A stretch of 64,000 nt of DNA from an uncultured Desulfobacterales bacterium (GTDB taxonomy: Bacteria; Desulfobacterota; Desulfobacteria; Desulfobacterales; B30-G6): contig CAYVMI010000024.1 in the NCBI GenBank assembly GCA_964452555.1, positions 11,250 through 75,249 on the forward strand. The letters run 5' to 3'. The notes under the pieces were generated by a model. The model was not told the origin of the DNA and did not search any database. It saw nothing but the letters and a program-made list of their open reading frames with translations. Made by a program: the position numbers and the translations under genes. Of this stretch, positions 3,264 through 42,712 are shown piece after piece (the first letter of the stretch is position 1; each line of letters begins with the position of its first letter).

Positions 3264-4880
3264 ATGTTGAAAGGGCGAACTTATGATGAGGTGTGCCGAA
3301 ATTTCAGGTGGAATCTGCCCGACACCTACAATATCGGTGTGGATGTATGCGATAAATGGGCCAATAGTCGCAAACGATTGGCCCTCATATACGTGGGACA
3401 GGATGAAAAAGAACAGCGCTATTCTTTTCAGGACATCAAGATTTGGTCTAACAGGTTGGCTAATGCCTTGGCCGCCCATGGGGTTGAAAAGGGAGACCGT
3501 ATAGGCATTCTGCTCCCCCAATGCCCAGAAACGTTGATTTCTCATATCGCGACCTATAAGCTGGGATGCATTGCTTTGCCGCTGTTGACGCTGTTCGGCC
3601 CCATGGCCATTGAGTATCGGCTCAAGGACAGTGCCGCCAAGGTTGTAATCTCCAATGAAAAAAGCTTGACGAAAATAATTGAAATCCAGGATCGTTTGCC
3701 TGACTTGAAGCTGATTTTAGTGAAGGGAGGTGGCGACAGGGACGGCACCGTGGATTTCTGGAAATGCCTGAAGCATGGCAAGAGTGATTTTAACCCGGTT
3801 GCCACCCATCCCGATGACCCGGCCCTGATCATTTATACGTCCGGCACGACAGGCCAGCCCAAAGGGACGCTGCATGCCCACCGACTGCTTCTGGGGATTA
3901 TGCCGGGTTTTGAATTTTACCACAACCTGTTTCCCCAAGAAAACGATCTGATGTATACACCGTTGGATTGGGCCTATATCGGAGGGTCTTACGATGCACT
4001 GTTCCCTTCCTTGCACCATGGCGTGCCCGTACTCTCATTCAGGCCACCCAAATTCGATCCTGAAAAAGCTTTTTACATAATGGAAAAATATGCGGTTCGA
4101 AACCTGATGGTCGTGCCTACCATATTGAGAATGATGATGCACGAGGTTAAAAACGTGACCAAACGCTACAAGATTAATCTGAGATCAGTAACCGCCGGCG
4201 GTGAGACCCTCGGGGGGGAGTTGTACCAGTGGAGCCGTGAAGTGCTGGGCGTGGATATCAATGAGCAGTATGGCCAGACAGAGTGTGATCTTGTGATCGG
4301 TTTTTGTGGTGACATCATGCCCATTGTCCAGGGTGCTATCGGGAAGGCCGTGCCCGGACACCATGTAGAGATTCTGAATTCCGATGGCACTTTGGCGGAT
4401 GTCAATGAAGATGGCGAAATTTGCGTCAAGCGGCCGGATCCGGTTATGTTTCTGCGTTATTGGAACAACCCTAAAGCCACGCTTGCTAAATTTTCCCATC
4501 AATGGATGAAGACCGGAGACCTTGGGCGCAAAGATGAAAACGGTCTTTTCTGGTTTACGGGCAGGGCGGACGACCTTATCGAGAGCGGTGGCTACAGAAT
4601 CGGTCCCGGAGAGATAGAGGCCTGCCTGATGCAACACGAGGCGGTGGCACTGGTTTGCGTTCTGGGGGTCCCGGATCCCATAAGGGGTGAGATCGTCAAG
4701 GCCTTCATAGTGCCCAAAGCGGGATTCATCCCCAACCAGTCGCTGGAGGAAAGCATTCGCAAACATGTGAAGAAAAGGTTGGAAGCGCACGCTTATCCCC
4801 GGATCATTCAGTTTCTGGAAGCCATGCCCATGACCAAAACAGGAAAAATTCTGAAAAGCAAGCTAAAAGAGATGCAATAA
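3264..4880 (+). CDS. AMP-dependent acyl-CoA synthetase/ligase
   Basis: Carries the AMP-binding motif IIYTSGTTGQPKG, the YGQTE motif, TGDLGRKDENG and a C-terminal KTGKI lysine motif. Confidence 0.9.
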   Translation: MLKGRTYDEVCRNFRWNLPDTYNIGVDVCDKWANSRKRLALIYVGQDEKEQRYSFQDIKIWSNRLANALAAHGVEKGDRIGILLPQCPETLISHIATYKLGCIALPLLTLFGPMAIEYRLKDSAAKVVISNEKSLTKIIEIQDRLPDLKLILVKGGGDRDGTVDFWKCLKHGKSDFNPVATHPDDPALIIYTSGTTGQPKGTLHAHRLLLGIMPGFEFYHNLFPQENDLMYTPLDWAYIGGSYDALFPSLHHGVPVLSFRPPKFDPEKAFYIMEKYAVRNLMVVPTILRMMMHEVKNVTKRYKINLRSVTAGGETLGGELYQWSREVLGVDINEQYGQTECDLVIGFCGDIMPIVQGAIGKAVPGHHVEILNSDGTLADVNEDGEICVKRPDPVMFLRYWNNPKATLAKFSHQWMKTGDLGRKDENGLFWFTGRADDLIESGGYRIGPGEIEACLMQHEAVALVCVLGVPDPIRGEIVKAFIVPKAGFIPNQSLEESIRKHVKKRLEAHAYPRIIQFLEAMPMTKTGKILKSKLKEMQ

Positions 4881-9934: not shown

Positions 9935-10633
9935 TTGCAATTAAATTTGACATTACAGCGAGATAAATCCAGCGAACCTCTGACATTCAATTTCTCGCGT
10001 ATGATCAATGCCGGCTATGTGGGGCGGGATCAGGAAGTGGTACGCAAATATATCGCTGAACTGGAGGCCAAAGGCATCCCCGGTCCCAAGAGCACACCGG
10101 TATTATTCCCGGTAAACCCGAGGGCACTGGTTATGAACGAGGACATCGAGGTTTACGGGACTCAAACCGCCGGTGAGGTCGAATATGTTTTGCTGATTCA
10201 AGATGCCCGAACCATCTATGTGGGCATGGGCAGCGATCACACCGATCGACTCCTGGAAGAGACCGACATCCCTCGTTCCAAGCAGATCTGCCCCAATGTC
10301 ATGTGTCCCACCGTATGGCTTTTGGCTGACGTGGAGTCACATTGGGATGAACTGACTTTTGACAGTCAGGTGATCAAAGATGGTGAAAGCATTGCCAACC
10401 AGGACGGACGGCTGGCGACCATTTTGAGCCCTGAAGCACTGATGGCTTTTGTACGTTCCAAATTGGGGGATGATCTTTCCGGCACGCTGCTGTTTTCCGG
10501 TACCGTGGGGACCATCAGCGGCCAATATATCTATGGTGAGCGTTTTATTGCCGGGTTGTACGATCCTGTTATGAACCGCAGCCTGAGCGTAAACTACGGA
10601 GTCCGCCCCTTAGACTATTTAGAAGTCGAATAA
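9935..10633 (+). CDS. Uncharacterised protein, DUF2848-like (recognised from memory only)
   Basis: ORF 9917-10633. TTG 9935 sits 5-6 nt after the strong RBS AAGGAGGTG. Motifs GYVGRDQ, GEVEYVL and GMGSDHTDR resemble DUF2848. Confidence 0.5.
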   Translation: MQLNLTLQRDKSSEPLTFNFSRMINAGYVGRDQEVVRKYIAELEAKGIPGPKSTPVLFPVNPRALVMNEDIEVYGTQTAGEVEYVLLIQDARTIYVGMGSDHTDRLLEETDIPRSKQICPNVMCPTVWLLADVESHWDELTFDSQVIKDGESIANQDGRLATILSPEALMAFVRSKLGDDLSGTLLFSGTVGTISGQYIYGERFIAGLYDPVMNRSLSVNYGVRPLDYLEVE

Positions 10634-12796: not shown

Positions 12797-14230
12797 ATGA
12801 AACCGATTATTCAATTTTTATCCGACCAAGAAGTTGAGATTCTGCACGTCCAATCGTTGAAAATCTTAAAAGAAATTGGCATGCGCCTGCCCCACGATGA
12901 AGCCATTGAGCTCTTATCTCAACATGGAGTTGAGATCGTGGATAAAAATGTGGTGCGGTTTCCTGAGGAATTGGTCTCCAGCACCATTAAAATGCTGCCC
13001 AAACTGAAAGACGTCACCCTGTACGGGCGGGACCCCAAACATGATGTCACTTTTGACAAACACGAACCAGCCTTGGCCTGCATGACCATGGCGGTAAACG
13101 TTATTGATCCGTATACGCGCCTTAAACGGCCGGCCACCAACGATGACTTGGCGGTTTTGACACGCATGGCTGATGAACTGGAAAATATTCGCGTAAACGG
13201 CGGTCTGGTGACACCGCAGGAAGTCCCCAAAAATTTCAACGACTGGTACACTTGGGCCACCACCATTAAAAATACGAGTAAGCATATCACCGGCGGGATG
13301 CTGGGAGCCAGCTGTGTCCAAGACGCTGCAAAAATGGCGGCCATTGCGCTCGGGGATGAGGAGCACTTCTATGCCAGGCCATTCATTTCCGGCTGGGTTC
13401 TGACCCTGCCGCCCCTTGGAATCGATGCGGAGTCCCTGGAGGCCTTGATGGAAATGAGCCGCATGAACATACCGGCCATCGTCAGCTCCGGCCCCATACT
13501 GGGGACTTCTTCTCCAGTGACCATCGCCGGTACTGTTGCCCAGGCCCACGCTGAAATCCTGGCCTGCATCGTTGTCTCTCAGTTAGTGAACCCGGGTGCG
13601 CCTATTGTCTATACCAGTTTTGCCCGCGGAATCGACATGAAGAGCGGTAATATTTCCATGGCATGCCCGGAATTTGGGATTTTGAAAGTTGCCATGGCTC
13701 AAATGGGAAGATATCTTGACCTGCCGGTACGCATGCCCGCTTTGCTGCGGGATTCCAAAACTATTGATGCTCAGGCCGGATACGAAACCGGCATGATTGG
13801 AACCGTAACCGGTCTAACGGCCGACCTCATGGATGCCATGCAGTTGGATATGGATTTGGTGGTGGATTTCCCTGATCTGGTTTTTTGCAATGAATGCATG
13901 GCCGGTATCAGCCGTATGGCCAGAGAATTGAAAGTAAATACAGAATCGCTGGCCCTGGAGGCCATAGCAAATGTCGGTCCTGGAGGTACTTTCTTAAGTC
14001 ACCCCCATACTTACGATAATTTTCGCAAGGAGCTATGGATACCATCTTTCATGGAACGCAGAAATTGGGACTTGTGGGAAGCGGACGGGGCCCTGGACAT
14101 ATTCAAAGTTGCTGAAAAGAAAACCCTTGAAATGCTGGAGCAAAAACCACTCACCTTGCTGTCAGAAGAAATTGAAAAGCAAATCGATACAGTCGTAGAG
14201 CGGGCCCAAGCCAAACACACTGAGCCTTAA
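12797..14230 (+). CDS. MttB-superfamily methyltransferase, non-pyrrolysine type (complete)
   Basis: 477 aa, uninterrupted, with no in-frame TAG. Full-length similarity to ORFs 2-1177 and 50398-51861. Confidence 0.9.
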   Translation: MKPIIQFLSDQEVEILHVQSLKILKEIGMRLPHDEAIELLSQHGVEIVDKNVVRFPEELVSSTIKMLPKLKDVTLYGRDPKHDVTFDKHEPALACMTMAVNVIDPYTRLKRPATNDDLAVLTRMADELENIRVNGGLVTPQEVPKNFNDWYTWATTIKNTSKHITGGMLGASCVQDAAKMAAIALGDEEHFYARPFISGWVLTLPPLGIDAESLEALMEMSRMNIPAIVSSGPILGTSSPVTIAGTVAQAHAEILACIVVSQLVNPGAPIVYTSFARGIDMKSGNISMACPEFGILKVAMAQMGRYLDLPVRMPALLRDSKTIDAQAGYETGMIGTVTGLTADLMDAMQLDMDLVVDFPDLVFCNECMAGISRMARELKVNTESLALEAIANVGPGGTFLSHPHTYDNFRKELWIPSFMERRNWDLWEADGALDIFKVAEKKTLEMLEQKPLTLLSEEIEKQIDTVVERAQAKHTEP

Positions 14231-15357: not shown

Positions 15358-15933
15358 CACTCCTCCTATATGGAAATCGTATTGGACATCTTTTATAGCG
15401 TTTCTATACCAGCATATCAAGAGGTGGCAATTTTGGACAATTCACGCATGGTCCTCTAAATCAGGTTTTTCAACTACTGAATAGATGATCAAAATATAAG
15501 ATCGCTGAACATTAAAAAAGCACCCAAATCAAATCGTTGGTTTTATGTGGCGCGCTTATACAATTTAAAATACTCCCAATTCAAAAATTCAAAATTGCTG
15601 AATCAAACCAAATCTTTTTTCAAAGCATTCAAGCGTAAGTATCAATATGGTAATAGGAAGTTTAAATGTAGATTACATCAAATTGAGGAAATACTTCTAT
15701 ACGTTAACTTTATGATTATGTCTTTTTGTCAATATTTTCTTCGTGTTATCGCAAGTCACAACATAATTTTTTCGGTCATATGTTTTGATTTCTTTACGTA
15801 GTTGGGTGAATATCAGTCAAAAATATACCGTCATTTTCCTGCAACCGTCGTTTTGCCATTACAATAGGTTTCTTTTAATAACGTCAATATGACATATTTA
15901 TTGTCCGTGGTGAGGGCATTGTAGCCAGCGGTA

Positions 15934-17172
15934 TTAAACAGTATGGATATCAAATTCCATTAAAACCACCTGTGTCAATTTTTTAAGAATTTTTGAAGAT
16001 AGATTGACTGTGATTTCCTTTTTTCTTCCATACCGCCCTTTCGATAAAAGCCGCGCCTGGATAAATCCATACATATCTAATTCGGAAACCAAATCAGAAA
16101 AAGCCCGTTGGGTAAGAGTCTTGAGATCAGCTTTATCGCAAAAGGAACAATATATTGCATAGGCCTCGCCGGTATATAATGGTTTGGCACTTATTGAATT
16201 TCTGGAAATAATTGAATACAAAACAGCCTGAAGTTGCTTCGGGCTTGATTTAATCATCGCGACATATTTATCTTTCTCTATTTCCTCCAAGGCCTTATCC
16301 AAAAGGTCTAACGATATTGCTGTCCCCTCTTTTTCAGCCATGTGAGATGATTTTGATAACAGTTCGACAGCCTTTCGTGCATCTCCATGTGTTCTGCTGG
16401 ATATAGCGGCGATTTTATCAACAACACCCTCTTCTATAAATTTTTCATTCAGGGCCTTTTTTATTCGTAATGAAAGAATTTTCTGGAGATCACAGGCATT
16501 ATAAGGCTCGAACAACAGTTCATTTATCTTTAAAAAAGATTTAATACGCGGATCAACATTATCCTGCCAATTCAGTCTATTTGAGGTGAACACAATCAGC
16601 AGCTTCGCTGATATTTTTTGTGGCAACCGTTTTACAATAAATTTTAAAAAGCTATCCAAATCACGTTTGATATGATCGATTTCGTCTATAAAGAGGATTA
16701 AATAGCCTTTGTAATCAACGATTTTTTCCTCAATCTTGCTCATCAATTCATCCAGAGATATTCCCTTTTTATATCGCTTTGCTGCGTTTAGAAAACAGGC
16801 AAGGTCATTTAATGCGCGAAAACATGGTTTGGGCGTAGATAGATCAAGATGGATATATTTCATGTTGATTTTTCGTTTTTCACACAGCGACTGGAACAAA
16901 TTTAGGAAATAAAGCATGGTTACTGTTTTGCCTGCACCGGTTTTTCCAAGGAGTGAAAGATGGATGGGATGATCATTTCGAAAGATAGGTGCGAAGTGGG
17001 AGCTTAATTCACGGATTTCTCTATCCCTGACATCAATATCGAAAATTTCACGTAATACCTCAAATTGCTCTTCTCGATGCAGTTGCTCATCATCTAAATA
17101 TTTTCTGTTCTTGATAATCGTGTTTTTAAGAAGAGTTTTTATTTGTTTTTCGATTTTTATTTCAACATCCAT
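15934..17172 (-). CDS. Orc1/Cdc6-type AAA+ ATPase with C-terminal winged helix
   Basis: Walker A GKTGAGKT, Walker B LILFIDEIDH, sensor-1 VFTSN, sensor-2 GDARKAVELL. C-terminal LTQRAFSDLVSELDMYGFIQARLLSKGRYGRKKEI matches the Cdc6 winged-helix signature. Confidence 0.85.
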   Translation of the reverse strand: MDVEIKIEKQIKTLLKNTIIKNRKYLDDEQLHREEQFEVLREIFDIDVRDREIRELSSHFAPIFRNDHPIHLSLLGKTGAGKTVTMLYFLNLFQSLCEKRKINMKYIHLDLSTPKPCFRALNDLACFLNAAKRYKKGISLDELMSKIEEKIVDYKGYLILFIDEIDHIKRDLDSFLKFIVKRLPQKISAKLLIVFTSNRLNWQDNVDPRIKSFLKINELLFEPYNACDLQKILSLRIKKALNEKFIEEGVVDKIAAISSRTHGDARKAVELLSKSSHMAEKEGTAISLDLLDKALEEIEKDKYVAMIKSSPKQLQAVLYSIISRNSISAKPLYTGEAYAIYCSFCDKADLKTLTQRAFSDLVSELDMYGFIQARLLSKGRYGRKKEITVNLSSKILKKLTQVVLMEFDIHTV

Positions 17173-17177
17173 TCTCG

Positions 17178-17395
17178 CTCCACCGGAAATTTACCAAGCT
17201 ATGTTGATGTTCTGAATGTACTCATATAAATAATTTTTGGTTTTATCAGTGGGTGTAGTTTTCCGATGGAAAATGTCAGGCGGGTGTGGGGATTACATAT
17301 TTTTTCTTTTTCTTGTTTGTTTCTATATAGAAAATAAATAATATGAATAGCATAAATATAATTATAATAGATTCCATCGGAAATTTACTCTCGCT
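17178..17395. other. Origin-like module: three TTCC-N4-GGAA dyad repeats around a ~75-bp extreme AT tract
   Basis: CTCCACCGGAAATTTACC (17178-17195), GTTTTCCGATGGAAAATGTC (17258-17277, opposite orientation) and ATTCCATCGGAAATTTACTCTCGCT (17371-17395). AT tract at 17296-17370. GGGTGT boxes at 17251 and 17283. Confidence 0.45.
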
Positions 17396-17478
17396 GAAAT
17401 AAACCCCTATTGGGAAAAGATTAACTCAGACCGGAGAACAAAGAAAAACAGTCTATAATTTGTAGAGTTTTAATGAAC

Positions 17479-17841
17479 TCATCTCAAATGCGGATGATAA
17501 GTCAGTTTGCTCTGAATTTTATAAGGCCTGGGATGTGACACGGAATGTATTCGATATGCATCTCTAAACGCAGATCGAGAGTAACCAACAGTCAGTTGAA
17601 TATCATCGCCTTTATTAATAAGGCGATCGACAGAATCAGTTTTTCGATTAAACGGATTGCTTAAAAGTCCGTATAAGTTCCCTATGCTTGGTTTCTGATT
17701 TTCATCCCTGAACTCAACATGATAATGCTTATAGGTACCTTTCTGTTCGACAACAATCCCGATCATACCATTGCCATACCTGTATTTGTCTATGACCTTA
17801 CCGCTTATATACTCACCCCTGATATAATCAATTAATGCCAT
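17479..17841 (-). CDS. Hypothetical protein (ORFan, 120 aa)
   Basis: Clean ORF in the AT-rich island. No recognisable motif and a weak RBS. Confidence 0.45.
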   Translation of the reverse strand: MALIDYIRGEYISGKVIDKYRYGNGMIGIVVEQKGTYKHYHVEFRDENQKPSIGNLYGLLSNPFNRKTDSVDRLINKGDDIQLTVGYSRSAFRDAYRIHSVSHPRPYKIQSKLTYHPHLR

Positions 17842-17902
17842 ATTATTTTGGGGTAAAGGATATGATCTATAAATACTTTTTGATTTTCATAAAAAAATGT
17901 TG

Positions 17903-17941
17903 CCTCGTTTCGTGAGATTTTAGAGAAAACACGAAACGAGG
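17903..17941. promoter_or_regulatory. Perfect 12-bp inverted repeat in a divergent intergenic region, covering the RBS of the downstream gene
   Basis: CCTCGTTTCGTG (17903-17914), 15-nt loop, CACGAAACGAGG (17930-17941). The right arm contains the GAGG used as RBS for ATG 17950. Confidence 0.5.
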
Positions 17942-17949
17942 TGATAGAA

Positions 17950-18327
17950 ATGGTAAAACCTGCGACAACAAAGCAGATAGCGTTAATAAAACAGCTAAAA
18001 CCAGATAGCGCCGACATCAGCTTGAACAGTTTTGAGGCATCGAAACTGATTGGCCGGTTAATTCAAAGTAAGGGACAGAGCGGCAATCTATTAGGAATTG
18101 AAAAACAGATAAATGAACCCCGGCTCGGGATGGCAATGAAAGAATGTTATAAAATTTGGACCAGATGGGGGAACAGAGATTTTCTTTTTGGAGACCGTAG
18201 AATTCGATTTATCAAAGAAGCTATTTTAACATATTATCTTTTTACAGAAATAGAAAATCGACTCAGAAATAATTTTTATAAAGGCGAAAAGTATATAGAA
18301 GAACTTGCCCCAGATTGGATTCCATAA
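17950..18327 (+). CDS. Hypothetical protein (ORFan, ~125 aa)
   Basis: ATG 17950 lies 8 nt after GAGGTG (track start GTG 17941). N-terminus is MVKPATTKQIALIKQL. No confident family assignment. Confidence 0.5.
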   Translation: MVKPATTKQIALIKQLKPDSADISLNSFEASKLIGRLIQSKGQSGNLLGIEKQINEPRLGMAMKECYKIWTRWGNRDFLFGDRRIRFIKEAILTYYLFTEIENRLRNNFYKGEKYIEELAPDWIP

Positions 18328-18633
18328 AGCTCCCTGGCTAAAACCAGGGTTCTTGTGGTCATTTCTCCATTTGGAGTTGATGAAGTATGATTTCTTTTTT
18401 TTCGATATAACAACTGGATTTTAAGCAAACTCTTTCTCAATTTTGGTTTTCTACACACCTAAAGCTTTAAAAGTCACTTCAAGTGCTCGGATATAAACTC
18501 TAAGAGTTTATTATCCTCACCTTGCAGCTAAACATTTAAATCTTCCCCCCAAAGGGGTCGGCTAAAAACATTTAATCCCCCCAAAATATTCCGTCGAAGG
18601 TTCACAAAGTGAAACCTTCGCGGAGGTATTAAA

Positions 18634-19218
18634 ATGAAAACTATAGCAAACATCGGTTGGAAAAATGAAGAACTGATTGTCCAGGAGAACCTACCAGTAT
18701 GTGCTGGCTTGAAAGTGATTCGTAAAAACGATCCCAATTACGGTCTCTCGGATGAGGAGATCCAAGACAGGAATGAATTTATTCGTTGTTACTTATTAAG
18801 GGATTTTGAGCCGCTTTTAAAAATACCAATACAAGTTGCCGAAGATGATTTTTTCATACCAGAGCATGATGTATGTTCTTCTGAATACACTGCGTTTAAC
18901 ACCCATGATTTTCAGAAAAGAATGCGGCCCTTCAATAGATACGCATACGCGATGAAAATAATATTAGAACGTGTAAAAGACCTTGCGATTTTATATTCAG
19001 TAGTAAGTTCCCGGGATGGCAAAGAAGAGATTTTTAGACGATTCGAATCACTGGTTGAATATCATTTCAGGGGTCGGCTTTTGTTCCTTGTTCGAAGATA
19101 TAGATATGCATATAGTGATTACGGGAGAATCAAATTAAAACAAAATATCGGCGAAATTAATCGAAGAATTCTTGAATGTAAAAGGATATGGGAGCAATTT
19201 GCTCCCTGGGACGTTTGA
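18634..19218 (+). CDS. Hypothetical protein (ORFan, 194 aa)
   Basis: RBS GGAGG at 18622-18626. Preceded by a hairpin (18595-18620) and two direct repeats. Confidence 0.55.
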   Translation: MKTIANIGWKNEELIVQENLPVCAGLKVIRKNDPNYGLSDEEIQDRNEFIRCYLLRDFEPLLKIPIQVAEDDFFIPEHDVCSSEYTAFNTHDFQKRMRPFNRYAYAMKIILERVKDLAILYSVVSSRDGKEEIFRRFESLVEYHFRGRLLFLVRRYRYAYSDYGRIKLKQNIGEINRRILECKRIWEQFAPWDV

Positions 19219-19403
19219 GTATGATAATATTGGAACTCCTTTGTCCCGTGATAAGGAAAACCGATCCTATATATAAATTTTTCGTTTTCACGCATTTTTA
19301 TGTTTTCTTTCCACTATACTTATAAAACACGGCGATAGATTTGTTGATATTCCCGCTTACGATTACCTCCATTGTCATTGAATAAACAATGGAGGTGCTC
19401 AAC

Positions 19404-19694
19404 ATGAATGCGTACGAACTATATGAAGTAAATAAAGCGATCAATGATGTCAGTAAAGGCTACAATGAGATCGGTCGAAGCCAGAAAACGTTGGCTCCAA
19501 AAACCAACAAATGGGATTATATATTAAGGAAAATTTGCCTTGGCTGTAATAAAACTTTGGGAATCTATGAGGTTCAAAATAATCTTGCTTTTTGTTTCCA
19601 GTGCCGGAAATATTTATTTCCGGAAACAGTATATCATCAGGATCCAATCAAAAACCGATTCCGTTCATTACGATCCAGAGGACATCCGATGTAA
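19404..19694 (+). CDS. Hypothetical small protein with a CxxC...CxxC zinc-ribbon-like motif
   Basis: ATG 19404 follows RBS GGAGGTG. Contains CLGCNKT...CFQCRK. Confidence 0.45.
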   Translation: MNAYELYEVNKAINDVSKGYNEIGRSQKTLAPKTNKWDYILRKICLGCNKTLGIYEVQNNLAFCFQCRKYLFPETVYHQDPIKNRFRSLRSRGHPM

Positions 19695-19789
19695 CGCGAC
19701 TTATGCCTGGCATTGCAAATATAGGGGTGGTTTTTGCAATATATTTGATCTTCAACTGGGGTCCTATAAACTGTAAATGCGCCAACAGC

Positions 19790-20236
19790 CTAATGCGCAT
19801 TCCCGCCTTGAAAAGCAATTCTAAGTGACAGGTTATCGCAAACAAACTCGTATGGTAGTGGGGAACCTATTGATCCCCGATATGCGTTCGTTGGGATAAC
19901 AAAGGCAAATTCTCCAGGTGGTATACAGCCGATATTAAATTCCCCAGATTGATTAATGCTGGCAGATTTAATTGGCGTTTTTTCGCCGATTTCATCCATG
20001 ACAGCGTCATATAATGTTGTTGACGTGCTGTATAAAAACACACGCGAGTTAGCAGTAATATCGCCTGAAACCGTACCATGGATATTTACACAGTTGCGCG
20101 GATATTCGTCGGCCAGGCGATTTTTTGGGTTAGAAATGGGTATATTGTTCTGACAACCGGTTGCTAATAATTCAACCAGGCAGATGAATACTATTACGAT
20201 TGTCAAACATATTGATTGTAAAAATTTGGTACTCAT
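19790..20236 (-). CDS. Predicted lipoprotein, beta-rich (carboxypeptidase-regulatory-like fold possible)
   Basis: Signal peptide with lipobox LLATGC. The mature part is rich in beta-type segments (IHGTVSGDI). Confidence 0.55.
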   Translation of the reverse strand: MSTKFLQSICLTIVIVFICLVELLATGCQNNIPISNPKNRLADEYPRNCVNIHGTVSGDITANSRVFLYSTSTTLYDAVMDEIGEKTPIKSASINQSGEFNIGCIPPGEFAFVIPTNAYRGSIGSPLPYEFVCDNLSLRIAFQGGNAH

Positions 20237-20330
20237 AGGTACTAATTTTATTGGAAGGGTTTTTATATTTTGCGGTTTTACTTTGCCGTGTGAGCAAGTA
20301 TTATCGTAAAATATTTAAAGGGAAACAATC

Positions 20331-20678
20331 ATGAGCAGGTTTATGCTTGGACCAAATTTCAATCGCCTCTACGGCGATGAAGGATATAAGATAAGATATA
20401 TGCGGGATCTGCAAATACAGATAAGAGAGGGGTATTTGAGATTCTGTAGATTGTTGGGAAAATCTACTAATAAGGTTTTTAATGTAGCCGATGAGCGAGA
20501 ATTGGTAAAACTATTCTACTGGCTACAAAATGATATAAAGATATACAAAAAGATTCGAGGGACAGGAATCGAGGGAGTTATAGGTGGTGATATAACAGAT
20601 ATTGAAAAAAAGTTGATTAAAAATAATCAGAGTTACCGGTTGCGTCGGGGACTATCGTCCCCTAGGCCCCGACTCTAA
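20331..20678 (+). CDS. Hypothetical protein (ORFan, 115 aa)
   Basis: ORF with RBS-like AGGGA. No recognisable motif. Confidence 0.4.
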   Translation: MSRFMLGPNFNRLYGDEGYKIRYMRDLQIQIREGYLRFCRLLGKSTNKVFNVADERELVKLFYWLQNDIKIYKKIRGTGIEGVIGGDITDIEKKLIKNNQSYRLRRGLSSPRPRL

Positions 20679-20688
20679 AGAGTCGGGG
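20667..20688. terminator. Stem-loop between convergent genes
   Basis: CCCCGACTC-taaa-GAGTCGGGG, preceded by a second hairpin GGGGAC-tatc-GTCCCC (20647-20662). No clear U-run on either strand. Confidence 0.35.
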
Positions 20689-20741
20689 CAAATAGGGGCT
20701 GAAGCTATTTGCCAAAGATTGTGGGAAGAGGTTCTATATAT

Positions 20742-22223
20742 TCAGGGCAAAATAGAAATACGAAGATAATAAAGGAAAATAAGAGATAACCATCCCATAT
20801 CTACAGGCACTTGATATAGCCGTCCAGGTGCAAAACGAGCTTTAATATGGCGCATTCCGGGTACGATCACGCGTACAACCGATACCCCGGCCGCAGGTGG
20901 AGTATAATCCAACACGAAAATTGGTCGCCCTTTTTGTTTGCCTATTGAGGTGCATAAATGCAGCTTTTCTTTCAAGTTACCTGGTTGGGCCAAAAATCGG
21001 TCCACAGCTTTTGGCGATCTCATTTTACCGGGTTGCATTTGGGGGTTATTTTTAATGAAATCACTTTGGGCCCACAAAATAAAGTTGCGTGCAGATTGAT
21101 CCAAAGATTCTAATCCACCGACGTCAATTTGTTTTTGTATGATCCGTTTGAGTGCGTGTACCTGCAGCATCTCACGCACTGCAGATTTGAGAGCTGATAA
21201 GTAATCGAAGTTTGCACCAAACCCCATGTCAATATCTGATTCATCACTGTTCATCGAAATTGCAGCAATCACGGGAATACCGAGATCATGGGTCAAGTCC
21301 AAAGCATAAAACCGACGATCCAATATTTCCAGCCAGCGCAGGCAACCATCTAATTCCGTATCCCTAAAATATTCTGGATCTATTGCCGGGCGGATGATCC
21401 GATTGTACCACCAAATCCCCACGGCGTCCCTTTCCACCACTTCCAGAAATCCCGAAACAATGGCTTCCTTACGCGTGGGGCCTGCGGCACAGCCATTGCT
21501 ATCGGCGATCAGATAATTTCGATCGTGGGGACAATGCAGATAGCAAAGTCCGGCGGGAACAAAATACGGTTTTCCTTCTGGATAGGAAGATACCTCAACC
21601 CAATCCAAAAGGTTATCGCTCCGGACGGGGTAAGGAACGCGATGCCGCTCTCCGAATTGGTTGTCCCGGACGTTCCTTTCTTGATATTGACGTTCACTGA
21701 AAAGAAGGAACTGATGAGGGTGAAGGCCTTTAGTACCTAATTCGCTTTTTTTTGCCCTGGTGATTTTAATATCCTCACGCCAGGTGATGGCCATCGTCTC
21801 CACCAGTTCTCCCAGAGCAGTTAAGATCCCTGTTTGGGGGGTAAATTCTGAACCGGCTGTATATATGTCTTGTTTCGCTAAATCATTTTCTTTTCCTCCG
21901 GACTTGATGTCTGGTTTTTTGGGGATTGCGGCGTAACTGAAAATTGGAAAATCATCATCGGGATTGATTGATACCAGCGCCCGAAGGCATGGTTCACAGG
22001 TCCTACAAACTGATCGGAATTGTTTTGCTAATTCATTTGACTGCCATTCTACTACCGTATTAGGATCAAAGTCTTCAGCAACGATTAGATTCCAATCGCT
22101 TAAAGCATAAAGAACATGGTAAACCTCTTCAGATTCAAACGATTCGCAAAGTTTGCGAACGATGTCTTGTACCGTGCGATGACCGTTAATCAATGCAGCA
22201 ACTTTAACAAGCATATGATTCAA
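20742..22223 (-). CDS. YcaO-domain protein (ATP-dependent peptide backbone-modifying enzyme) with an extra ~110-aa N-terminal region
   Basis: SNGCAAGPTRKEAIVSGFLEVVERDAVGIWWYN is the YcaO core. The VVRVIVPGM...RFAPGR tail is also YcaO-like. N-terminal LINGHRTVQDIVRKL...VYHVLYAL resembles the helical part of PqqD-like RRE domains. Confidence 0.85.
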   Translation of the reverse strand: MNHMLVKVAALINGHRTVQDIVRKLCESFESEEVYHVLYALSDWNLIVAEDFDPNTVVEWQSNELAKQFRSVCRTCEPCLRALVSINPDDDFPIFSYAAIPKKPDIKSGGKENDLAKQDIYTAGSEFTPQTGILTALGELVETMAITWREDIKITRAKKSELGTKGLHPHQFLLFSERQYQERNVRDNQFGERHRVPYPVRSDNLLDWVEVSSYPEGKPYFVPAGLCYLHCPHDRNYLIADSNGCAAGPTRKEAIVSGFLEVVERDAVGIWWYNRIIRPAIDPEYFRDTELDGCLRWLEILDRRFYALDLTHDLGIPVIAAISMNSDESDIDMGFGANFDYLSALKSAVREMLQVHALKRIIQKQIDVGGLESLDQSARNFILWAQSDFIKNNPQMQPGKMRSPKAVDRFLAQPGNLKEKLHLCTSIGKQKGRPIFVLDYTPPAAGVSVVRVIVPGMRHIKARFAPGRLYQVPVDMGWLSLIFLYYLRISILP

Positions 22224-22498
22224 CCCTATGACAATAAAATTATAATATTAGGATTTTTTTACATGTAATGTAATAATTGCAAATATAGAACATATATGGT
22301 AGGCATCAGAGTTACGAACGCTACGTACACATCCTATTCTTTTCCGACTCCACGCTGAATTACAATTCACCTAACATTGCTCGCTACTGCATTAAGTCAA
22401 TTCACGCTGCAATCACAAGAGTTAAAGGTCCACCACTACTACGGTAAGTGATGCCATCCACGGGCTTACCAGATCCCACCAAACAAAGGAGGTTACTC

Positions 22499-22795
22499 AT
22501 GCCGAGATTAAACCTGTCCAAAACGGATTGTAAAAAAATGGGAAAGTTGATCGGTGATGCTTGGCGTCATCCTGACAAGCGGAAAAAACTACTCGTAAAC
22601 CCAGAAAAGGAAATGACCAAAGCGGGCATTAAAATACCAAATGTTGACAAGATTCGGATCGTCGCCGTCGAAGATACCAAAACGACAATTCATTTGGTTT
22701 TGCCAGTACGGCCGGATAGCGTCACCTTTACCGATCTGAAATCAAGTTCGTTTCAGTTAGATTTGGGGCAAAAACTTTTTGCTGCCTGCCGCTAA
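22499..22795 (+). CDS. NHLP (nitrile-hydratase-like leader peptide) family RiPP precursor
   Basis: RBS AAGGAGG precedes ATG 22499. The leader reads LIGDAWRHPDKRKKLLVNPEKEMTKAGIKIPNVDKIRIVAVEDTKTTIHLVLPVRP. The C-terminal tail is DSVTFTDLKSSSFQLDLGQKLFAACR. Confidence 0.8.
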   Translation: MPRLNLSKTDCKKMGKLIGDAWRHPDKRKKLLVNPEKEMTKAGIKIPNVDKIRIVAVEDTKTTIHLVLPVRPDSVTFTDLKSSSFQLDLGQKLFAACR

Positions 22796-36966: not shown

Positions 36967-39372
36967 TCATGCGACGATTTTATTTAACTCAGCGTGGACG
37001 GCGTAGCCGATTTTCTTGAGGGTATATGGTTTGCGGATATAGGCACCGGCACCAAGCCTCTGGGTTTCCTTGACCCGTTCGGTTTCAGAGAAACCGCTGG
37101 CGATAACGGCCTTCTGATCAGAATTTACTTCCAATATTTTCCGATACGTTTCCAGGCCATCCATTCCCGGACCCAATATCATGTCCAAAACCAATAAATC
37201 AAATAGATCCCCATTTTTGATACAATCCACCGCAGCTTCACCGGTGGAAACGGCCTTGACTTGATATCCGAAGACTTCCAGCATTTTGGAGGCGATTTCA
37301 CGCTGCTCCCGTACATCATCAATCACCAGGATTTTTTGTCCCCGGCTCATTAAATCATCCAGCGATAAATCCGAAACGGTTTCCTGATTCGTTTTCCTGG
37401 TGACAGGCAGATAAACCTTGATGGATGTCCCCTTATTCAATTCACTGAGAATATCAATATAGCCATTATGGTCCTTAACCGTCCCCCACACCACTGCCAT
37501 ACCCAATCCGGTGCCGCTGCGTCCCATGGATTTCTTGGTGTAAAACGGCTCGAAAATGCGCTCCAGATCCTCATCTGATATACCGATGCCGTTATCCGAT
37601 ATGGAAATGACGATATAATCACCTTCGGCCACATCATCGTAGCCCTGGATAGCGGTATCGACGTATTGGTTTTTAGTTTGAATAAGCAATTCGCCGCCAT
37701 CGGGCATGGCCTCGAGTGCATTGATGATCAGATTCATGATCGTTTTGGATAAATGTACCGGCGAACCCAGCATATTTAGGATCTCTGAATTTAGTTCGGT
37801 CCGGACGTGAACGGCTTTATGATAACTTTTTATTTTTTTAAACTCGGGACTCTCTAAAAAATCCTGGATCAGCGTATTAATATGGACTAGTTCAGTGACT
37901 TTAATGCCGCTGCGCGAAAGCGTCAGTAGGTCATTGACAATTGTTGCCGCCTTTTCGCCGGTTTTCTTAATTGTCAGGATTGGTTTGCGCAAAGGACTGG
38001 TGCGGGGAAGATCCAGCAGCATCAATTCCGGATAGCTGATGATACCGGATAAGATGTTGTTCAGATCATGTGCCACCCCGCCGGCCAGCAGACCAATGGC
38101 TTCCATTTTTTTGGCCCGGTGCAGTTTAGTCTCCAGCTCCAGACGCTCGGCTTCCGAATTGACCTTATCCTCAATTTCTTTTTTCAGCTTTTGGTTGGCC
38201 AATTCAAGATCGGCGGTCCTTTCGCGTACTTTTGCTGCCAGCTGACTGCGGGCCCTTTTAAGGCTCTTGATCTGGATGTCGATCGTTTGGGCCATGGAAT
38301 TGAGCGCTCTGAAAATGAGTTTGAATTCCTCGTAGTCATTCGCTGCAACCTCGATCGAATAGGTAATATCCTTCTGGATCTTGTTGGTTTCCCGGCGCGT
38401 GCGCACAAAGGCGGACATGATCCTGTATACATATAATGTTAGGCCCACAATGATAATTAAAAAAACCGAGATTGAAATGATTTGAATCGCCAACAGCCAT
38501 TTGCCTAATTGCCGGCGCCTCGCTTGGATTTGTTCCCGTTCTTGCTGGAACGTTTCCGCCTGTGCCAGCGAATTTTGGATCATTTGTTTGGAGATCGCAG
38601 CGAATTCGATCTCTCCCGTCAGGAGTACCGTAAAGGCTTTTTCAAACATTCTGCCGGTGATAAGCAGCTCCTCCACCAACAGCCCGTCCTGGGCATCCAA
38701 CGAGTAATCTTCGAAGGTATTAACCGAATCATAGAAATGCTTTATATTATCTTGAAACTCTTTTTTAAGTATGGAGGGCTGTTCAGTTACATTAAGTTTA
38801 TAAAAGATTGAAAAAACGTCCAGAAGCTGGTTCTGGATTGTGACGGCCGCATTGACGATTTCCAGTTCCGGTGCCGCCTTCACGGAACTGCGTTTAAATT
38901 CCTCACTTGTATCCCAATCCTGGGTGGTATGCCCGCGTCGCAACAAATTCTTTAAATAGACGATGTGATGTTCATGGATGTAGCGGACGCTTTCAACCAT
39001 GCTGGGCATTAAGTTACGAACAATATTGTGTTGATCTTCAATGCGCATATTCAAATCAAGCAAGGTATTAAAAAGCTTTGAACGCTGATCCAATAAAACC
39101 ATGTTTTCGCCGAAACCGATCTCACGGGCTTCGGTTTTGATATTCTGATATAAATTGATAACCTGAATGCCGGTATCCGGGTTATTTAAGGCAATCCTTT
39201 CCTTCAATACAGCCGCTGAAAATTCTTTTTCCAGACCCAGAATCTGATGATAGGTTGTGTCGGCCTTTTTTTCGATATAATTAAAATAAAGAGTCAACAG
39301 GTATAAACCGCTCAGTAAAACAATTGCGGTCATGAACATCTGAAGATTCGATTTGATCGACTTGAATTTCAT
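36967..39372 (-). CDS. Hybrid sensor histidine kinase/response regulator (membrane sensor, HisKA, HATPase, REC)
   Basis: H-box GGVAHDLNNILSGI, N/G boxes (NALEAM, DNGIGI, GTGLGMA) and a C-terminal REC (ILVIDD...DLLVLDMILPGMDG). Start set at ATG 39372. Confidence 0.85.
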   Translation of the reverse strand: MKFKSIKSNLQMFMTAIVLLSGLYLLTLYFNYIEKKADTTYHQILGLEKEFSAAVLKERIALNNPDTGIQVINLYQNIKTEAREIGFGENMVLLDQRSKLFNTLLDLNMRIEDQHNIVRNLMPSMVESVRYIHEHHIVYLKNLLRRGHTTQDWDTSEEFKRSSVKAAPELEIVNAAVTIQNQLLDVFSIFYKLNVTEQPSILKKEFQDNIKHFYDSVNTFEDYSLDAQDGLLVEELLITGRMFEKAFTVLLTGEIEFAAISKQMIQNSLAQAETFQQEREQIQARRRQLGKWLLAIQIISISVFLIIIVGLTLYVYRIMSAFVRTRRETNKIQKDITYSIEVAANDYEEFKLIFRALNSMAQTIDIQIKSLKRARSQLAAKVRERTADLELANQKLKKEIEDKVNSEAERLELETKLHRAKKMEAIGLLAGGVAHDLNNILSGIISYPELMLLDLPRTSPLRKPILTIKKTGEKAATIVNDLLTLSRSGIKVTELVHINTLIQDFLESPEFKKIKSYHKAVHVRTELNSEILNMLGSPVHLSKTIMNLIINALEAMPDGGELLIQTKNQYVDTAIQGYDDVAEGDYIVISISDNGIGISDEDLERIFEPFYTKKSMGRSGTGLGMAVVWGTVKDHNGYIDILSELNKGTSIKVYLPVTRKTNQETVSDLSLDDLMSRGQKILVIDDVREQREIASKMLEVFGYQVKAVSTGEAAVDCIKNGDLFDLLVLDMILGPGMDGLETYRKILEVNSDQKAVIASGFSETERVKETQRLGAGAYIRKPYTLKKIGYAVHAELNKIVA

Positions 39373-39377
39373 ATTGA

Positions 39378-40181
39378 TTATTGAGGTGTTTCCGTCTGAT
39401 ACCCCGCTTTGATCCAACCTCGCATACCAAACAACAGGCCATATACATTTTTATAGCCATACTTGGATAAAAATTGCATCGCAAATTTGTCACGGTTACC
39501 GGTTTCCGTAACCGTGACAACCAGGCCGTCTTTCGGTATCTGTTTTCTGACTTCGGCTTTTTGCAGATCGTCCAACAAACAGAAAATGAGGGGGCAGTCG
39601 CTTTGGATGATGGGCGGTCGCCGGACATCTTTTAACTGGTGTTCGGTTCTTAAGTCCAGCAAGGTTACATTCGGAATACCGGCCTCGTTTGTACAGGTAT
39701 CCTCCACCGGGGTTAATTTGGAGAGCACCTCTTTTGCGGTTAGAAATTGACTTTTATATTGCGGCAGAGGTTCCAGCGTTTCAATCTTGAATTCGGATTT
39801 TATCCAATCTTTTAAACCACCGTTATAGATCCGTATGTTTTTATACCCGTATTTCTTGGCGGCAACTGCCGTCTTGTAGGCAAATACTCACCGATAACCC
39901 ATTCAGTACATGACCAGCAATTTGTTCAGATCTTTACCTGCCCGCTGAATCGTATCCTCGAAGCGGCTCCAGGGAATATTGACTGAGCCTGGGATCGAAC
40001 TGTTGCGAAAAATAATTTCGTCCAGAGTATTGATGAGAGCAAATTCAAGCTGCCCCAGCTCCCTTTGGGCCAGCATATTTACCAATTCTTCGGTGGTCAC
40101 AATTTCAAAGCGTTCCAGGGCCATGGCCGAAAATCCGGAAAATATCAGTAACACGACAGATGCCAGGATAGCATTTTTCAT
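39378..40181 (-). CDS. Secreted tandem-rhodanese protein with two in-frame TGA codons in the first active-site loop (candidate selenoprotein, or a recent pseudogene)
   Basis: One frame is open from ATG 40181 to TAA 39378 apart from TGA at 39903-39905 and 39888-39890. It reads ..KLLVMY-TGA-MGYR-TGA-VFAYKTAVAAKKYGYKNIRIYNGGLKDW.., and the first TGA sits where rhodaneses carry the catalytic Cys. The N-terminus is a signal peptide. The second domain is Cys-less (TETGNRD). Confidence 0.5.
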
Positions 40182-40444
40182 GTATAGCTCCAGTTAATAT
40201 GGCTATCTATTGATTAAAATGAAGGGGTCGCTCTGAATTCAAATCAAATTTCAATAGATCAATTGCATTTGATTTGCAAGTTGTAACTGCTTCGGGCGGA
40301 GACAAATCTAATGCTTGGATTATTGCCGGACATCTAATCATTGTCTGATTTAATCCAGATGGCCAATCAGCCCTCCAGTTGCTTTTCGAACTTTGCCAGA
40401 TATTTTTTGGTTTCCACGAGGGTGGTAACCGATGGGAATTATAT

Positions 40445-42418
40445 CTAAGAGCTGGTATCCGTGATGATTTCCTGAATCTTTTGGGATAGGTTCTGGACAG
40501 TAAATGGCTTTTGGATAAATCCGTTGCAGCCCCGGGCCATAATCTCGGCAGCCTGACCGTCGAGCGTATACCCACTGGAAAGTATCACCGGAATTTCTGG
40601 CCGCACCCTGCGGATATGATCAAAGGTAAGACCACCGTCCATTTCCGGCATAATCATATCTAAAATTATCAAATCAATAGCGGTACCCTTATCCTGAACG
40701 ATCTCTATGGCCCTCAATCCACTCTCAGCCTTAAGAACGGAATAACCCAACTTTATGAGCATGGCGCCGGATACATCCAGTATCATTTGCTCATCATCAA
40801 TCAGCAGAATCGTCGCGCTTCCCTGCGTAATTTTCTGGGGTGCGGTATGGGTAGACGCCAGTTGTTTATCAGAAAGGGGAATGTAAATATTAAAAGTGGT
40901 ACCCTCATTAATCCGGCTGTCTACCGATATAATGCCGCCGTGATTTTTAATGATGCCATAGGCCGATGCCAGGCCCAAACCAGTTCCCGCGCTTTTATCT
41001 TTGGTGGTAAAAAAAGGATCGAATATCCGCTGTCGCGTTTCTCTATTCATGCCAATGCCGGTATCGGTCACCGATATTTTGGCAAATCGACCCACTTCGA
41101 GATTGTGAGCGCTACAAAGTTTTTCGTTCATCCTGACAGCCGATATTGCTAGAGATAGCTCACCGCCTGTCGGCATAGCCTGCCAGGCATTGACATATAG
41201 ATTCAATAAAACCTGTTCTATTTGCGATCGATCAGCTTCAACAACGATCAGGTCCGGTGCCGCCTTAATATGAATGCGGATCTCTTTACGGGTACGACCA
41301 AACATATTGGCACTGTCGGTCACCAATTGATTGAGTTCGATGGGTTTGACCTCATATTTGCCGCCACGCACAAAACCGAGCAATTGATTGGTCATATCCA
41401 CAGCGCTTTTAGTATAATCATGAATGGCCTGGATGTGCTCGTTTAGGGGTTCAGAGCCATCCACTTCGAGCGACATCAGGGATGCACGCCCCAGAATACC
41501 CATTAACAGATTATTGAAATTGTGGGCGATCCCGCCGGCAAGTGTCCCGATGGCTTCCATTTTATGGGCTTGTTTTAACTCGTTTTCCATCCGTTTTAAA
41601 TCGGTGATATCGGTGGCAATCTGCAAGCGTACCAGACGCCCGTCTGTCCATTCAATCGCCCGATCGTAATTGCTGTACCATTTGTCCGTAATCGGATTTT
41701 CTCCTTGCCAGATGTACACACCGGTTGGCCGGCCGGTTTCATCGATCAGGCGATCATTGGAGCAGTGGTCACAGGGTCCGGTTTCATTGCGGAATACCTG
41801 ATAGCAAATTCTGCCGGTCAAATCCTGACCAAACGAATCAATCATATGCTTATTCATGAAAAGAATTTCATAGGATTGCATATCAGCCACGTAAATCGTC
41901 GCGTCGATACTATCCAAAACAGTGAGAAATCGGACGTGTGACAACTTTAAGGCTTCTTGGGCGCGTTTGCGATCAGTTATATCAATGATAACCCCTTCAG
42001 TATAACCTTTATCCGGATAGGCCGTGGCGCTCAATGCGATCTGAATCGTAGACCCATCTGAACACCGCATTTCGGTTTCAAATCCATCCACCTTGCTGTG
42101 CTTTTCGAGCATTGCCATGAGTTCGCTGCGCCGTATGGGATCAACATACTGCTTAGAGGTCACAAACTCCGTCACAAATTTTTCAACTGACTGATAACCC
42201 ATCATATTGGCTAATGTTCGATTGGCGGCCAGAAGTTTTCCATCATTGAGACGCGTGCGGTAAATCCCCACCATGGCCGTATCAAACAACTGGCGATATA
42301 GTTTTTCTTTGGCTTCGAGTCGCGCTAACTTTTTTAGCAATTCTGATTTAGTCGGTTCCGTCGTCATCCACTGATTCCTTAGCTGAATATCAATTGATTG
42401 CGTCTTGTAGCGAGCCAA
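40445..42418 (-). CDS. PAS-domain hybrid histidine kinase/response regulator
   Basis: Two PAS-like segments, H-box GGIAHNFNNLLMGI, HATPase (DTGIGM, GTGLGLA) and REC (ILLIDDE...DLIILDMIMPEMDG). The track start is TTG 42418; ATG 42367 is an alternative. Confidence 0.85.
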   Translation of the reverse strand: MARYKTQSIDIQLRNQWMTTEPTKSELLKKLARLEAKEKLYRQLFDTAMVGIYRTRLNDGKLLAANRTLANMMGYQSVEKFVTEFVTSKQYVDPIRRSELMAMLEKHSKVDGFETEMRCSDGSTIQIALSATAYPDKGYTEGVIIDITDRKRAQEALKLSHVRFLTVLDSIDATIYVADMQSYEILFMNKHMIDSFGQDLTGRICYQVFRNETGPCDHCSNDRLIDETGRPTGVYIWQGENPITDKWYSNYDRAIEWTDGRLVRLQIATDITDLKRMENELKQAHKMEAIGTLAGGIAHNFNNLLMGILGRASLMSLEVDGSEPLNEHIQAIHDYTKSAVDMTNQLLGFVRGGKYEVKPIELNQLVTDSANMFGRTRKEIRIHIKAAPDLIVVEADRSQIEQVLLNLYVNAWQAMPTGGELSLAISAVRMNEKLCSAHNLEVGRFAKISVTDTGIGMNRETRQRIFDPFFTTKDKSAGTGLGLASAYGIIKNHGGIISVDSRINEGTTFNIYIPLSDKQLASTHTAPQKITQGSATILLIDDEQMILDVSGAMLIKLGYSVLKAESGLRAIEIVQDKGTAIDLIILDMIMPEMDGGLTFDHIRRVRPEIPVILSSGYTLDGQAAEIMARGCNGFIQKPFTVQNLSQKIQEIITDTSS

Positions 42419-42712
42419 ATGCGGCTTCTTCCTGGAATGCTATCTGGTTTAATTTATCAGGGACAGCGGCAATGAGTTCCGCAGGAGCTTCAACCTCCAA
42501 AGCATCCTTACAGGGAGCGACGGCCTGCTCCCACAGATCACCGCACTGTTTTATCCTAAGGGCTACTTCCTGCAGTCCGCTGTTGACATTGATATTAGCG
42601 GCTTCATGGGTATTTGTCTATTCCAAGCGAGTAATGCGGACAACAAGTACTGCGGAAACAGTGGTCTAGATATGGGCGCGATACCTGTAATTGTCGATGT
42701 CCGATTAATTAT

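Follow-up and report, generated by a model that had tools for sequence, protein, structure and literature searches.

Origins of replication built from Orc1 and ORB elements are regarded as an archaeal hallmark, continued by descent in the eukaryotic ORC, and bacteria use DnaA or plasmid Rep proteins. The locus described here raises the question of whether an origin of the archaeal type can reside in bacterial DNA. It lies in a 64,000-nt stretch from an uncultured Desulfobacterales bacterium (hereafter the window), in which an orc1/cdc6-like gene is preceded by repeated boxes and an AT-rich tract. The first-pass annotation likened this arrangement to the grammar of archaeal origins and named beforehand, as tests of the likeness, conservation of the motif beside homologous genes and co-variation of the repeat across those loci.

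On the evidence set out below, which was drawn from sequence, orc1 (15934-17172) and the adjoining DNA (17173-17400) would represent an Orc1-1-class initiator together with an ORB-type origin of a plasmid- or ICE-like element, probably persisting here as a short chromosomal remnant. We give this reading a probability of roughly 60%.

The window encodes an Orc1/Cdc6 protein in a bacterial host

15934-17172, minus strand: orc1/cdc6, 412 aa; AAA+ ATPase with Cdc6 lid and C-terminal winged helix

The Pfam models Cdc6_C, Cdc6_lid, and AAA_22 all matched the window protein above their cutoffs, and TIGR02928 (orc1/cdc6) scored 249.1 bits against a cutoff of 181.3. The protein aligned over its full length (E=8.5e-53) with Sulfolobus (Sso) Orc1-1 from the DNA-bound crystal structure 2QBY_A. 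Its Walker A (GKTGAGKT), Walker B (DEID), sensor 2 (GDARKA), and wing (GRYGRKKE) motifs align with those of 2QBY_A and 2V1U_A, and identity to solved archaeal Orc1 proteins is about 30%. An AlphaFold model, built on a shallow alignment and of low confidence (mean pLDDT of 63), served for a coarse fold match only; the top three Foldseek hits were 2QBY_A, 2QBY_B, and 2V1U_A, all archaeal Orc1 proteins on origin DNA. By these sequence criteria, the window protein is a true member of the Orc1/Cdc6 family, of the archaeal Orc1-1 class. The family is otherwise associated with archaeal and eukaryotic hosts, and the host here is bacterial.

The N-terminal 45 residues, which are family-specific and nearly invariant, fall outside the Sso Orc1-1 alignment; we speculate that they could be an adaptor. 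A search of Orc1 against anti-phage families returned no match. In a library of 1.84 billion proteins, the window protein and its close relatives form one cluster at 50% identity, with sister groups at 36 to 40%; among relatives that have a name, a Micrarchaeota Cdc6 (34%) comes closest.

Also on this contig are genes for a sigma-54 enhancer-binding protein, hybrid histidine kinases, and an OmpA-domain protein. Those homologues that have a name belong to MAGs of Thermodesulfobacteriota and Syntrophales, one of them lying on a 564-kb contig. The host is a bacterium, Desulfobacterota-like.

Three ORB-type boxes and an AT-rich spacer lie upstream of orc1

17372-17396, minus strand: ORB-A, full 25-bp box, CAGCGAGAGTAAATTTCCGATGGAA in gene orientation; 24.5 bits, E=1.4e-5
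17247-17271, plus strand: ORB-B, full 25-bp box, CAGTGGGTGTAGTTTTCCGATGGAA; 22.8 bits, E=4.8e-5
17178-17194, minus strand: ORB-C, mini-ORB 17-mer, GTAAATTTCCGGTGGAG in gene orientation; 14.1 bits
17225-17244, minus strand: promoter-like box; family consensus AAAACCGAAAAATATAAATA (also ACCGAAAAATATAAATA), window copy AAAACCAAAAATTATTTATA, from alignments
17272-17371, no strand: AT-rich spacer, putative duplex-unwinding element (DUE); 100 bp, 24% GC
17320-17333, no strand: central palindrome TTTCTATATAGAAA, midway between the inverted ORB-A and ORB-B

The three copies of one motif reported by the first-pass annotation are present in the sequence where it had placed them (17178-17194, 17247-17271, and 17372-17396), and there is none elsewhere in the 64 kb. 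The pattern CCATCGGAAATTTAC, searched across the whole window with up to three mismatches, matched only 17180-17194 (+), 17255-17269 (-), and 17374-17388 (+). By itself, this number of matches equals chance (3.1 expected from shuffles of the whole window); the matches carry 0, 1, and 2 mismatches, and all fall inside 215 bp. With a 27-nt ORB profile made from homologous loci, ORB-A, ORB-B, and ORB-C were the only sites in the window to score above 8 bits.

Some details of the initial description had to be revised. The repeat unit was drawn too short, as the outer two copies span 25 bp with the consensus CAGTGrGAGTArwTTTCCnnTGGAA (17247-17271 and 17372-17396). The copy nearest orc1, said to lie 6 nt from the start codon, lies 5 nt before the ATG and includes the Shine-Dalgarno GGAG (17178-17181), which ORB-C thus overlaps. 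Of two GGGTGT boxes said to flank the second copy, one is the outer half of that copy and the other (17280-17292) shows no sequence conservation in relatives.

ORB-A is the copy distal to orc1. ORB-B is inverted relative to both ORB-A and ORB-C, so that the cores of ORB-A and ORB-B are turned toward the AT tract between them. ORB-C lacks the outer half of the box. The core of the spacer (17296-17370), estimated by eye at about 15% GC in the first-pass annotation, measured 14.7%, and the overlapping stretch 17291-17374 is the sole part of the 64-kb window with 75-mers that low in GC. Each strand of the spacer is T-rich on the way in from its ORB to the center. The palindrome TTTCTATATAGAAA had been missed in the first description.

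A scan for sigma-70 promoters on the gene strand upstream of orc1 called none. The promoter-like box, by its sequence, presumably resembles an archaeal BRE plus TATA element. DnaA boxes, with up to one mismatch allowed, are absent from 17173-17478, and their number over the whole window is at chance. An iteron-based or DnaA-assisted oriV was rejected, as the region holds an inverted pair and one distant direct copy and no DnaA box.

The layout is conserved beside homologous orc1 genes

Homologous loci were collected from genomes (4), from metagenomes (57), and from look-ups of encoding contigs (12). The proteins that they encode are mostly 70 to 78% identical to the window Orc1. The layout was kept in every locus with enough upstream DNA, in 38 distinct versions, so that the test set beforehand, conservation of the motif beside homologous genes, was passed. 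The conserved order is ORB, T-rich arm, palindrome TTTCTATATAGAAA, A-rich arm, and inverted ORB, followed by the promoter-like box, a mini-ORB over the ribosome-binding site, and orc1. The arrangement of inverted boxes around an AT-rich tract with orc1 adjoining, as first described for the window, therefore holds for the window and for all 38 distinct loci.

In gene orientation, ORB-A lies at about -200 to -280, the inverted ORB-B at about -98, and ORB-C at -22 to -6. The 3′ end of ORB-C is TGGAG in 23 of 36 distinct loci. The A-B distance is variable, and ORB-B and ORB-C are a fixed distance of about 76 nt apart in all loci. As an observation on the origin interpretation, this fixed spacing fits a regulatory role at least equally well.

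Across the 38 distinct loci, the spacer between ORB-A and ORB-B is 86 to 178 bp long (median, 109), with a median GC content of 24.5%. Its left half is T-rich in all 38 loci and its right half A-rich in 36 of them. The palindrome TTTCTATATAGAAA occurs with at most two mismatches in 36 of 37 distinct spacers, at a relative position of 0.45 to 0.59, compared with 0.8% of shuffled spacers.

In approximately 400 kb of locus DNA, all profile matches of at least 20 bits were the ORBs of pairs near orc1. Such pairs are also found apart from the orc1 promoter. Loci L001, L020, L021, and L023 have a second ORB-AT-ORB unit, with a central TTTCTATACAGAAAA of its own, just downstream of orc1, and in L004, whose protein is 56% identical, an ORB pair lies 1.2 kb upstream of the gene. 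In L091, from a sister family at 40% identity, only degenerate ORB-like sites were found, in another layout.

Boxes and winged helix changed together in one subclade

In the subclade comprising L026, L043, L048, and L060, TTTCC has become (A/T)TGC(A/C) in all three sites. Fifteen of the 18 residue changes private to this subclade are at positions 293 or higher, in the winged-helix part of the protein; among them are R351H and T354K, where the recognition helix begins. The corresponding share of private changes in other lineages is 41%. The scan of homologous loci for co-variation thus yielded a concerted change of site and winged helix in one subclade, which, as a single evolutionary event, is suggestive and no proof. 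From these sequences, Orc1 can be predicted with high confidence to bind the boxes.

The arms of the boxes also bear on a structural explanation, according to which the DNA would act as an oriT, a single-strand hairpin, or a cruciform of 25-nt arms, or the repeat would have arisen by chance. ORB-A and ORB-B are inverted and their arms approximately 79% complementary, and a relaxase-family gene is present in some relatives, as this explanation would have it. However, the arms keep a site-specific consensus across loci (TAAATTTCC-GAT in A and TAGTTTTCC-AGT in B) with no compensation, and these differences favor protein sites over a selected hairpin. The third copy is in direct orientation, the sites match archaeal ORBs that are bound by protein, and an Rfam search of the window between 15 and 21 kb gave no match. 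The hairpin or oriT reading was rejected on the uncompensated differences between the arms, and a chance repeat is excluded by conservation in 38 loci. As a whole, the structural explanation is scarcely credible, and binding sites for Orc1 within an origin are the preferred reading of the boxes.

The module lies on a low-GC island related to mobile elements

15400-20750, no strand: low-GC island, ~5.3 kb; 31 to 42% GC versus 44 to 58% in the flanks
17479-17841, 18634-19218, 19389-19694, 19790-20236, and 20331-20678: island ORFs with homologues, found by tblastn against related loci

Besides orc1 and the origin-like region, the island holds six small ORFs of unknown function; homologues of five of them lie beside orc1 in other loci (tblastn). 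Searches of the neighboring ORFs against Pfam, NCBIfam, PADLOC, PHROGs, and PDB sequences were uninformative, and none of the island ORFs encodes a recognizable UBP-like protein. The island holds no integrase, transfer, or partition genes, and no att-like direct repeats surround it; lacking an integrase, att repeats, and transfer genes, it may be a remnant.

Other loci have a richer gene content near orc1, namely, a TraG/HerA-like DUF87 ATPase with a PD-(D/E)XK nuclease, ArdC, RadC, SprT, a relaxase-family (Replic_Relax) protein, ParA, and HU. By this content, the related loci look like parts of a conjugative plasmid or ICE. Over 10,565 nt, L008 and L009 do not differ; their right flanks then diverge abruptly, 1.3 kb after orc1, which fits one element in two contexts, or possibly an assembly artifact. 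A search for terminal overlaps that would mark circular contigs gave none.

A protein search of IMG/VR found no relative, and none was found among phage records; a search of IMG/VR by ORB pattern gave 18 single matches and no pairs, which is chance level. In PLSDB (72,556 plasmids), 438 records had a relative, and the 85 matches listed were all archaeal plasmids, at no more than 31% identity. Genes for MCM, DnaB, primase, or polymerase were absent within 8 to 10 kb of orc1 in 11 contexts, as were other helicase domains.

Because ParA and HU genes are close to orc1 in L007, L089, and L090, a partition or DNA-organizing site was considered, in which Orc1 on the inverted boxes would form a centromere-like or nucleoid-anchoring complex together with the ParA of the element. 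The ParA genes have small downstream partner genes of their own, though, and the ORB-DUE-ORB grammar is that of proven origins. We are aware of no case in which Orc1 binds a centromere, and we regard such a function as very improbable beside that of an origin.

The poverty of the island also suits a different view, namely, that the window holds an inactive fossil, once the working origin of an intact element, possibly in an archaeal host, and now a decaying remnant without function. In addition to the approximately 5.3 kb left without integrase, transfer, partition, or att sequences, the window ORB-B (22.8 bits; typical values are 25 to 29) and the promoter box both depart from the family consensus, and the window Orc1, with 27 private substitutions, ranks among the most changed proteins of the set. 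The diverged ORB-B and promoter box, together with the missing integrase, att, and transfer sequences, mean that the window copy may be inactive. Decay does occur in the family, since orc1 is frameshifted in L043/L044 and L048. In the window, by contrast, the 412-codon ORF is unbroken and keeps every catalytic motif, and the ribosome-binding site, the palindrome, and each of the boxes are present in register. A complete loss of function is rather improbable for the window copy, and an ORB-type origin carried on a short remnant remains our reading of it.

A probable origin with a likely second role as operator

The first proposal, that the locus reproduces archaeal origin grammar, is supported by a true Orc1/Cdc6 protein, by boxes near-identical to bound Pyrococcus ORBs, and by a layout like that of Sulfolobus oriC1. 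From its sequence, the module probably is, or recently was, a replication origin.

In the proposed mechanism, Orc1 monomers would occupy the two full ORBs (17247-17271 and 17372-17396) with opposite polarities, placing the winged helix on the TTTCC-NNN-GGAA core, which faces the AT tract, and the AAA+ initiator-specific motif on the outer CAGTGAGAG half of the box; this binding mode is suggested by homology with 2QBY and 2V1U and by the co-variation of site and winged helix. ATP-bound Orc1 would then deform the DNA and mark the 100-bp spacer for helicase loading or duplex opening, and a DNA-binding protein of the host or the element would probably occupy the central palindrome, both steps being modeled by analogy on the Sulfolobus ORB3-DUE(ucm)-ORB2 arrangement. 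To our knowledge, bacteria lack MCM, which archaeal Orc1 loads. Candidates for the helicase are a host DnaB-type enzyme and an unrecognized protein of the element.

Orc1 would in addition control its own synthesis, through ORB-B at the place of a -35 element and the mini-ORB over the ribosome-binding site. From these positions of the boxes, ORB-B and ORB-C very probably also form an autoregulatory operator, which is compatible with an origin. Such autoregulation is a feature of archaeal orc1 genes adjacent to origins.

The positions of the boxes also admit the stricter view of a domesticated Orc1, now a DNA-binding regulator that acts on its own gene or on genes of the element, with the three boxes as operators that have no role in replication. 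ORB-C overlaps both the leader and the Shine-Dalgarno sequence, ORB-B is immediately next to the conserved promoter-like box, spacing varies between A and B but not between B and C, and the search of 11 contexts found no helicase gene nearby. Yet an operator has no need for a distal inverted full ORB across an AT tract of 86 to 178 bp, for a strand-symmetric T/A skew, or for a palindrome. Both the second ORB-AT-ORB unit downstream of orc1 in one clade (L001, L020, L021, and L023) and the L004 pair, 1.2 kb from the gene, are separate from the orc1 promoter, and the ATPase motifs are intact. We consider regulation as the only function unlikely, and an origin whose inner boxes double as an operator the better account.

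A bolder extension is doubtful at present: that bacterial conjugative or integrative plasmids replicate from a true archaeal oriC1-type origin. Two routes to this can be imagined. The first is a rewiring of Orc1, perhaps via its N-terminal 45 residues, that would let it load a bacterial helicase. The second is an element that would pass back and forth between syntrophic bacteria and archaea, with Orc1, the ORBs, and the BRE/TATA-like promoter put to use in the archaeal partner.

In the literature searched, coverage of which was incomplete, we found no description of a bacterial Orc1/Cdc6 or of a bacterial ORB origin. An Orc1-ORB-DUE module that is conserved, and apparently under selection, on mobile elements of bacteria would be the first such case outside the archaeal lineage and its eukaryotic descendants, and evidence that entire replicon modules can pass from one domain to another. 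It would also raise the question of what Orc1 loads in a cell without MCM.

Comparison with known systems

Iteron plasmid replicons of the RepA/pPS10 type offer a functional analogy, since they too would combine an element-encoded winged-helix initiator, repeats by an AT-rich region, and autoregulation. A relationship between the Orc1/Cdc6 winged helix and the WH1 domain of dWH plasmid initiators, pPS10 RepA among them, has been put forward (bioRxiv 10.1101/2024.09.03.610885). Unlike these replicons, the locus has a full AAA+ Orc1, an inverted pair in place of tandem iterons, and no DnaA box.

A second comparison is with the orc1/cdc6-adjacent origins of archaeal plasmids and minichromosomes, as in haloarchaea and Methanosarcina, in which Orc1 is the initiator of an extrachromosomal or integrated element; these plasmids were the sole kind of relative among the 85 of 438 PLSDB matches listed. 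They differ in that their proteins are at most 31% identical to the window Orc1 and that their hosts are archaea with MCM.

At the level of the boxes, close counterparts are in Pyrococcus (Thermococcales), for which the ORB oligonucleotides bound in vitro by Cdc6/Orc1 have been printed, ORB3 being GAGAGTTTTATTTCCACTGGAA (PMC1904270). ORB-A of L001 (GAGAG-TAAATTTCCACTGGAA) agrees with P. furiosus ORB3 at 19 of 22 aligned positions, and ORB-A of the window agrees at 17 of 22. The Pyrococcus mini-ORB ATTTCCACTGGAG is identical to ORB-C in many loci (the agreement is at 11 to 13 of 13 positions; 11 of 13 in the window). Both systems are divided into long ORBs (here A and B) and mini-ORBs (here C), and ORB clusters lie on either side of orc1 in one clade, as they do around Pyrococcus cdc6 (PMC1904270). 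In contrast with Pyrococcus, the outer half of the boxes has no C/G string like that of the ORB1 and ORB2 oligonucleotides (PMC1904270), and mini-ORBs are far fewer. The DNA region is thus like, and by these alignments apparently sequence-related to, an archaeal ORB origin, full membership being provisional.

A further close likeness is to Sulfolobus, whose Orc1-1 is also the best solved relative of the window protein. In PMC12141716, Sulfolobus oriC1 is described as having ORB2 and ORB3 inverted around an AT-rich DUE, both of them essential; midway between them lies ucm, also essential and bound by a nucleoid protein, and a third ORB (ORB1) and the orc1-1 gene are adjacent. As far as that description goes, the two systems share three Orc1 boxes, two of which are inverted around an AT-rich region of about 100 to 130 bp, a conserved motif in the middle of the pair, and an initiator gene immediately beside. 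They differ in that the host here is bacterial with no known MCM, that the module is on a mobile element, and that the third box overlaps with a ribosome-binding site of bacterial type. The central motif is here a 14-bp palindrome, analogous to ucm in position. The authors of that work ask explicitly whether other lineages have a mid-DUE feature like ucm (PMC12141716); judged by position, the central palindrome would be a second, independent case of such a motif.

A second origin-like unit downstream of orc1

The archaeal-type orc1/cdc6 gene is followed in one clade of homologous loci (L001, L020, L021 and L023) by an extra module, directly 3′ of orc1, that consists of an origin recognition box (ORB), an AT tract and an inverted ORB. 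The AT tract of this downstream module contains TTTCTATACAGAAAA.

Downstream ORB-AT-ORB module (locus positions)
L001, about 3539-3560
L020, 3460-3672
L021, 3241-3357
L023, 2392-2508

The initiator gene in that clade is therefore bracketed by two origin-like units.

Possible element boundary and HU-family genes in related loci

Contigs L008 and L009, which come from different samples, share identity over 10.5 kb that includes orc1 and diverge sharply at position 10565, 1326 nt past the orc1 stop. This position may mark the boundary of the element. An HU-family gene was found near orc1 in three elements, and its product is a candidate for the protein that binds the central palindrome, the conserved motif midway in the AT tract between the inverted ORBs upstream of orc1.

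HU-family genes (Bac_DNA_binding) near orc1 (locus positions)
L007, 11127-11414
L089, 11318-11656
L090, 19367-19627

Orc1 N terminus and gene integrity

The N-terminal ~45 residues of Orc1 (codons 1 to 45, window 17038-17172) are almost unchanging across the bacterial family, fall beyond the alignment with Sulfolobus Orc1-1, and have pLDDT values below 50 in the predicted structure. Frameshifted orc1 genes were observed in L043/L044 (4713-5928) and L048 (2477-3728), members of the subclade with altered ORB cores, and reflect either pseudogenisation or assembly error.

Bacterial host and other genes in the window

12797-14230, (+), MttB-family (trimethylamine methyltransferase-like) gene
20742-22223, (-), YcaO cyclodehydratase
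22448-22795, (+), small ORF, weak nitrile-hydratase-alpha-like match
36967-45010, (-), three consecutive hybrid histidine kinases
50398-51861, (+), MttB-family gene
56309-57838, (+), sigma-54 enhancer-binding protein

The host is bacterial, because the window encodes hybrid histidine kinases and a sigma-54 enhancer-binding protein. Two MttB-family genes occur within this single 64-kb bacterial genome stretch. The YcaO gene adjoins the small ORF, and the two, which border the low-GC island, may represent a modifying enzyme and its NHLP-type RiPP precursor.

A promoter-like box between ORB-B and ORB-C

The consensus of related loci contains a conserved box, ACCGAAAAATATAAATA, between ORB-B and ORB-C, two of the ORBs upstream of orc1.

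17225-17244 in the window, conserved box
1430-1450 in L091, the same box

The box has no sigma-70 -35 partner. It also lies upstream of the 40%-identical sister orc1 of L091, and it looks similar to an archaeal BRE plus TATA element.
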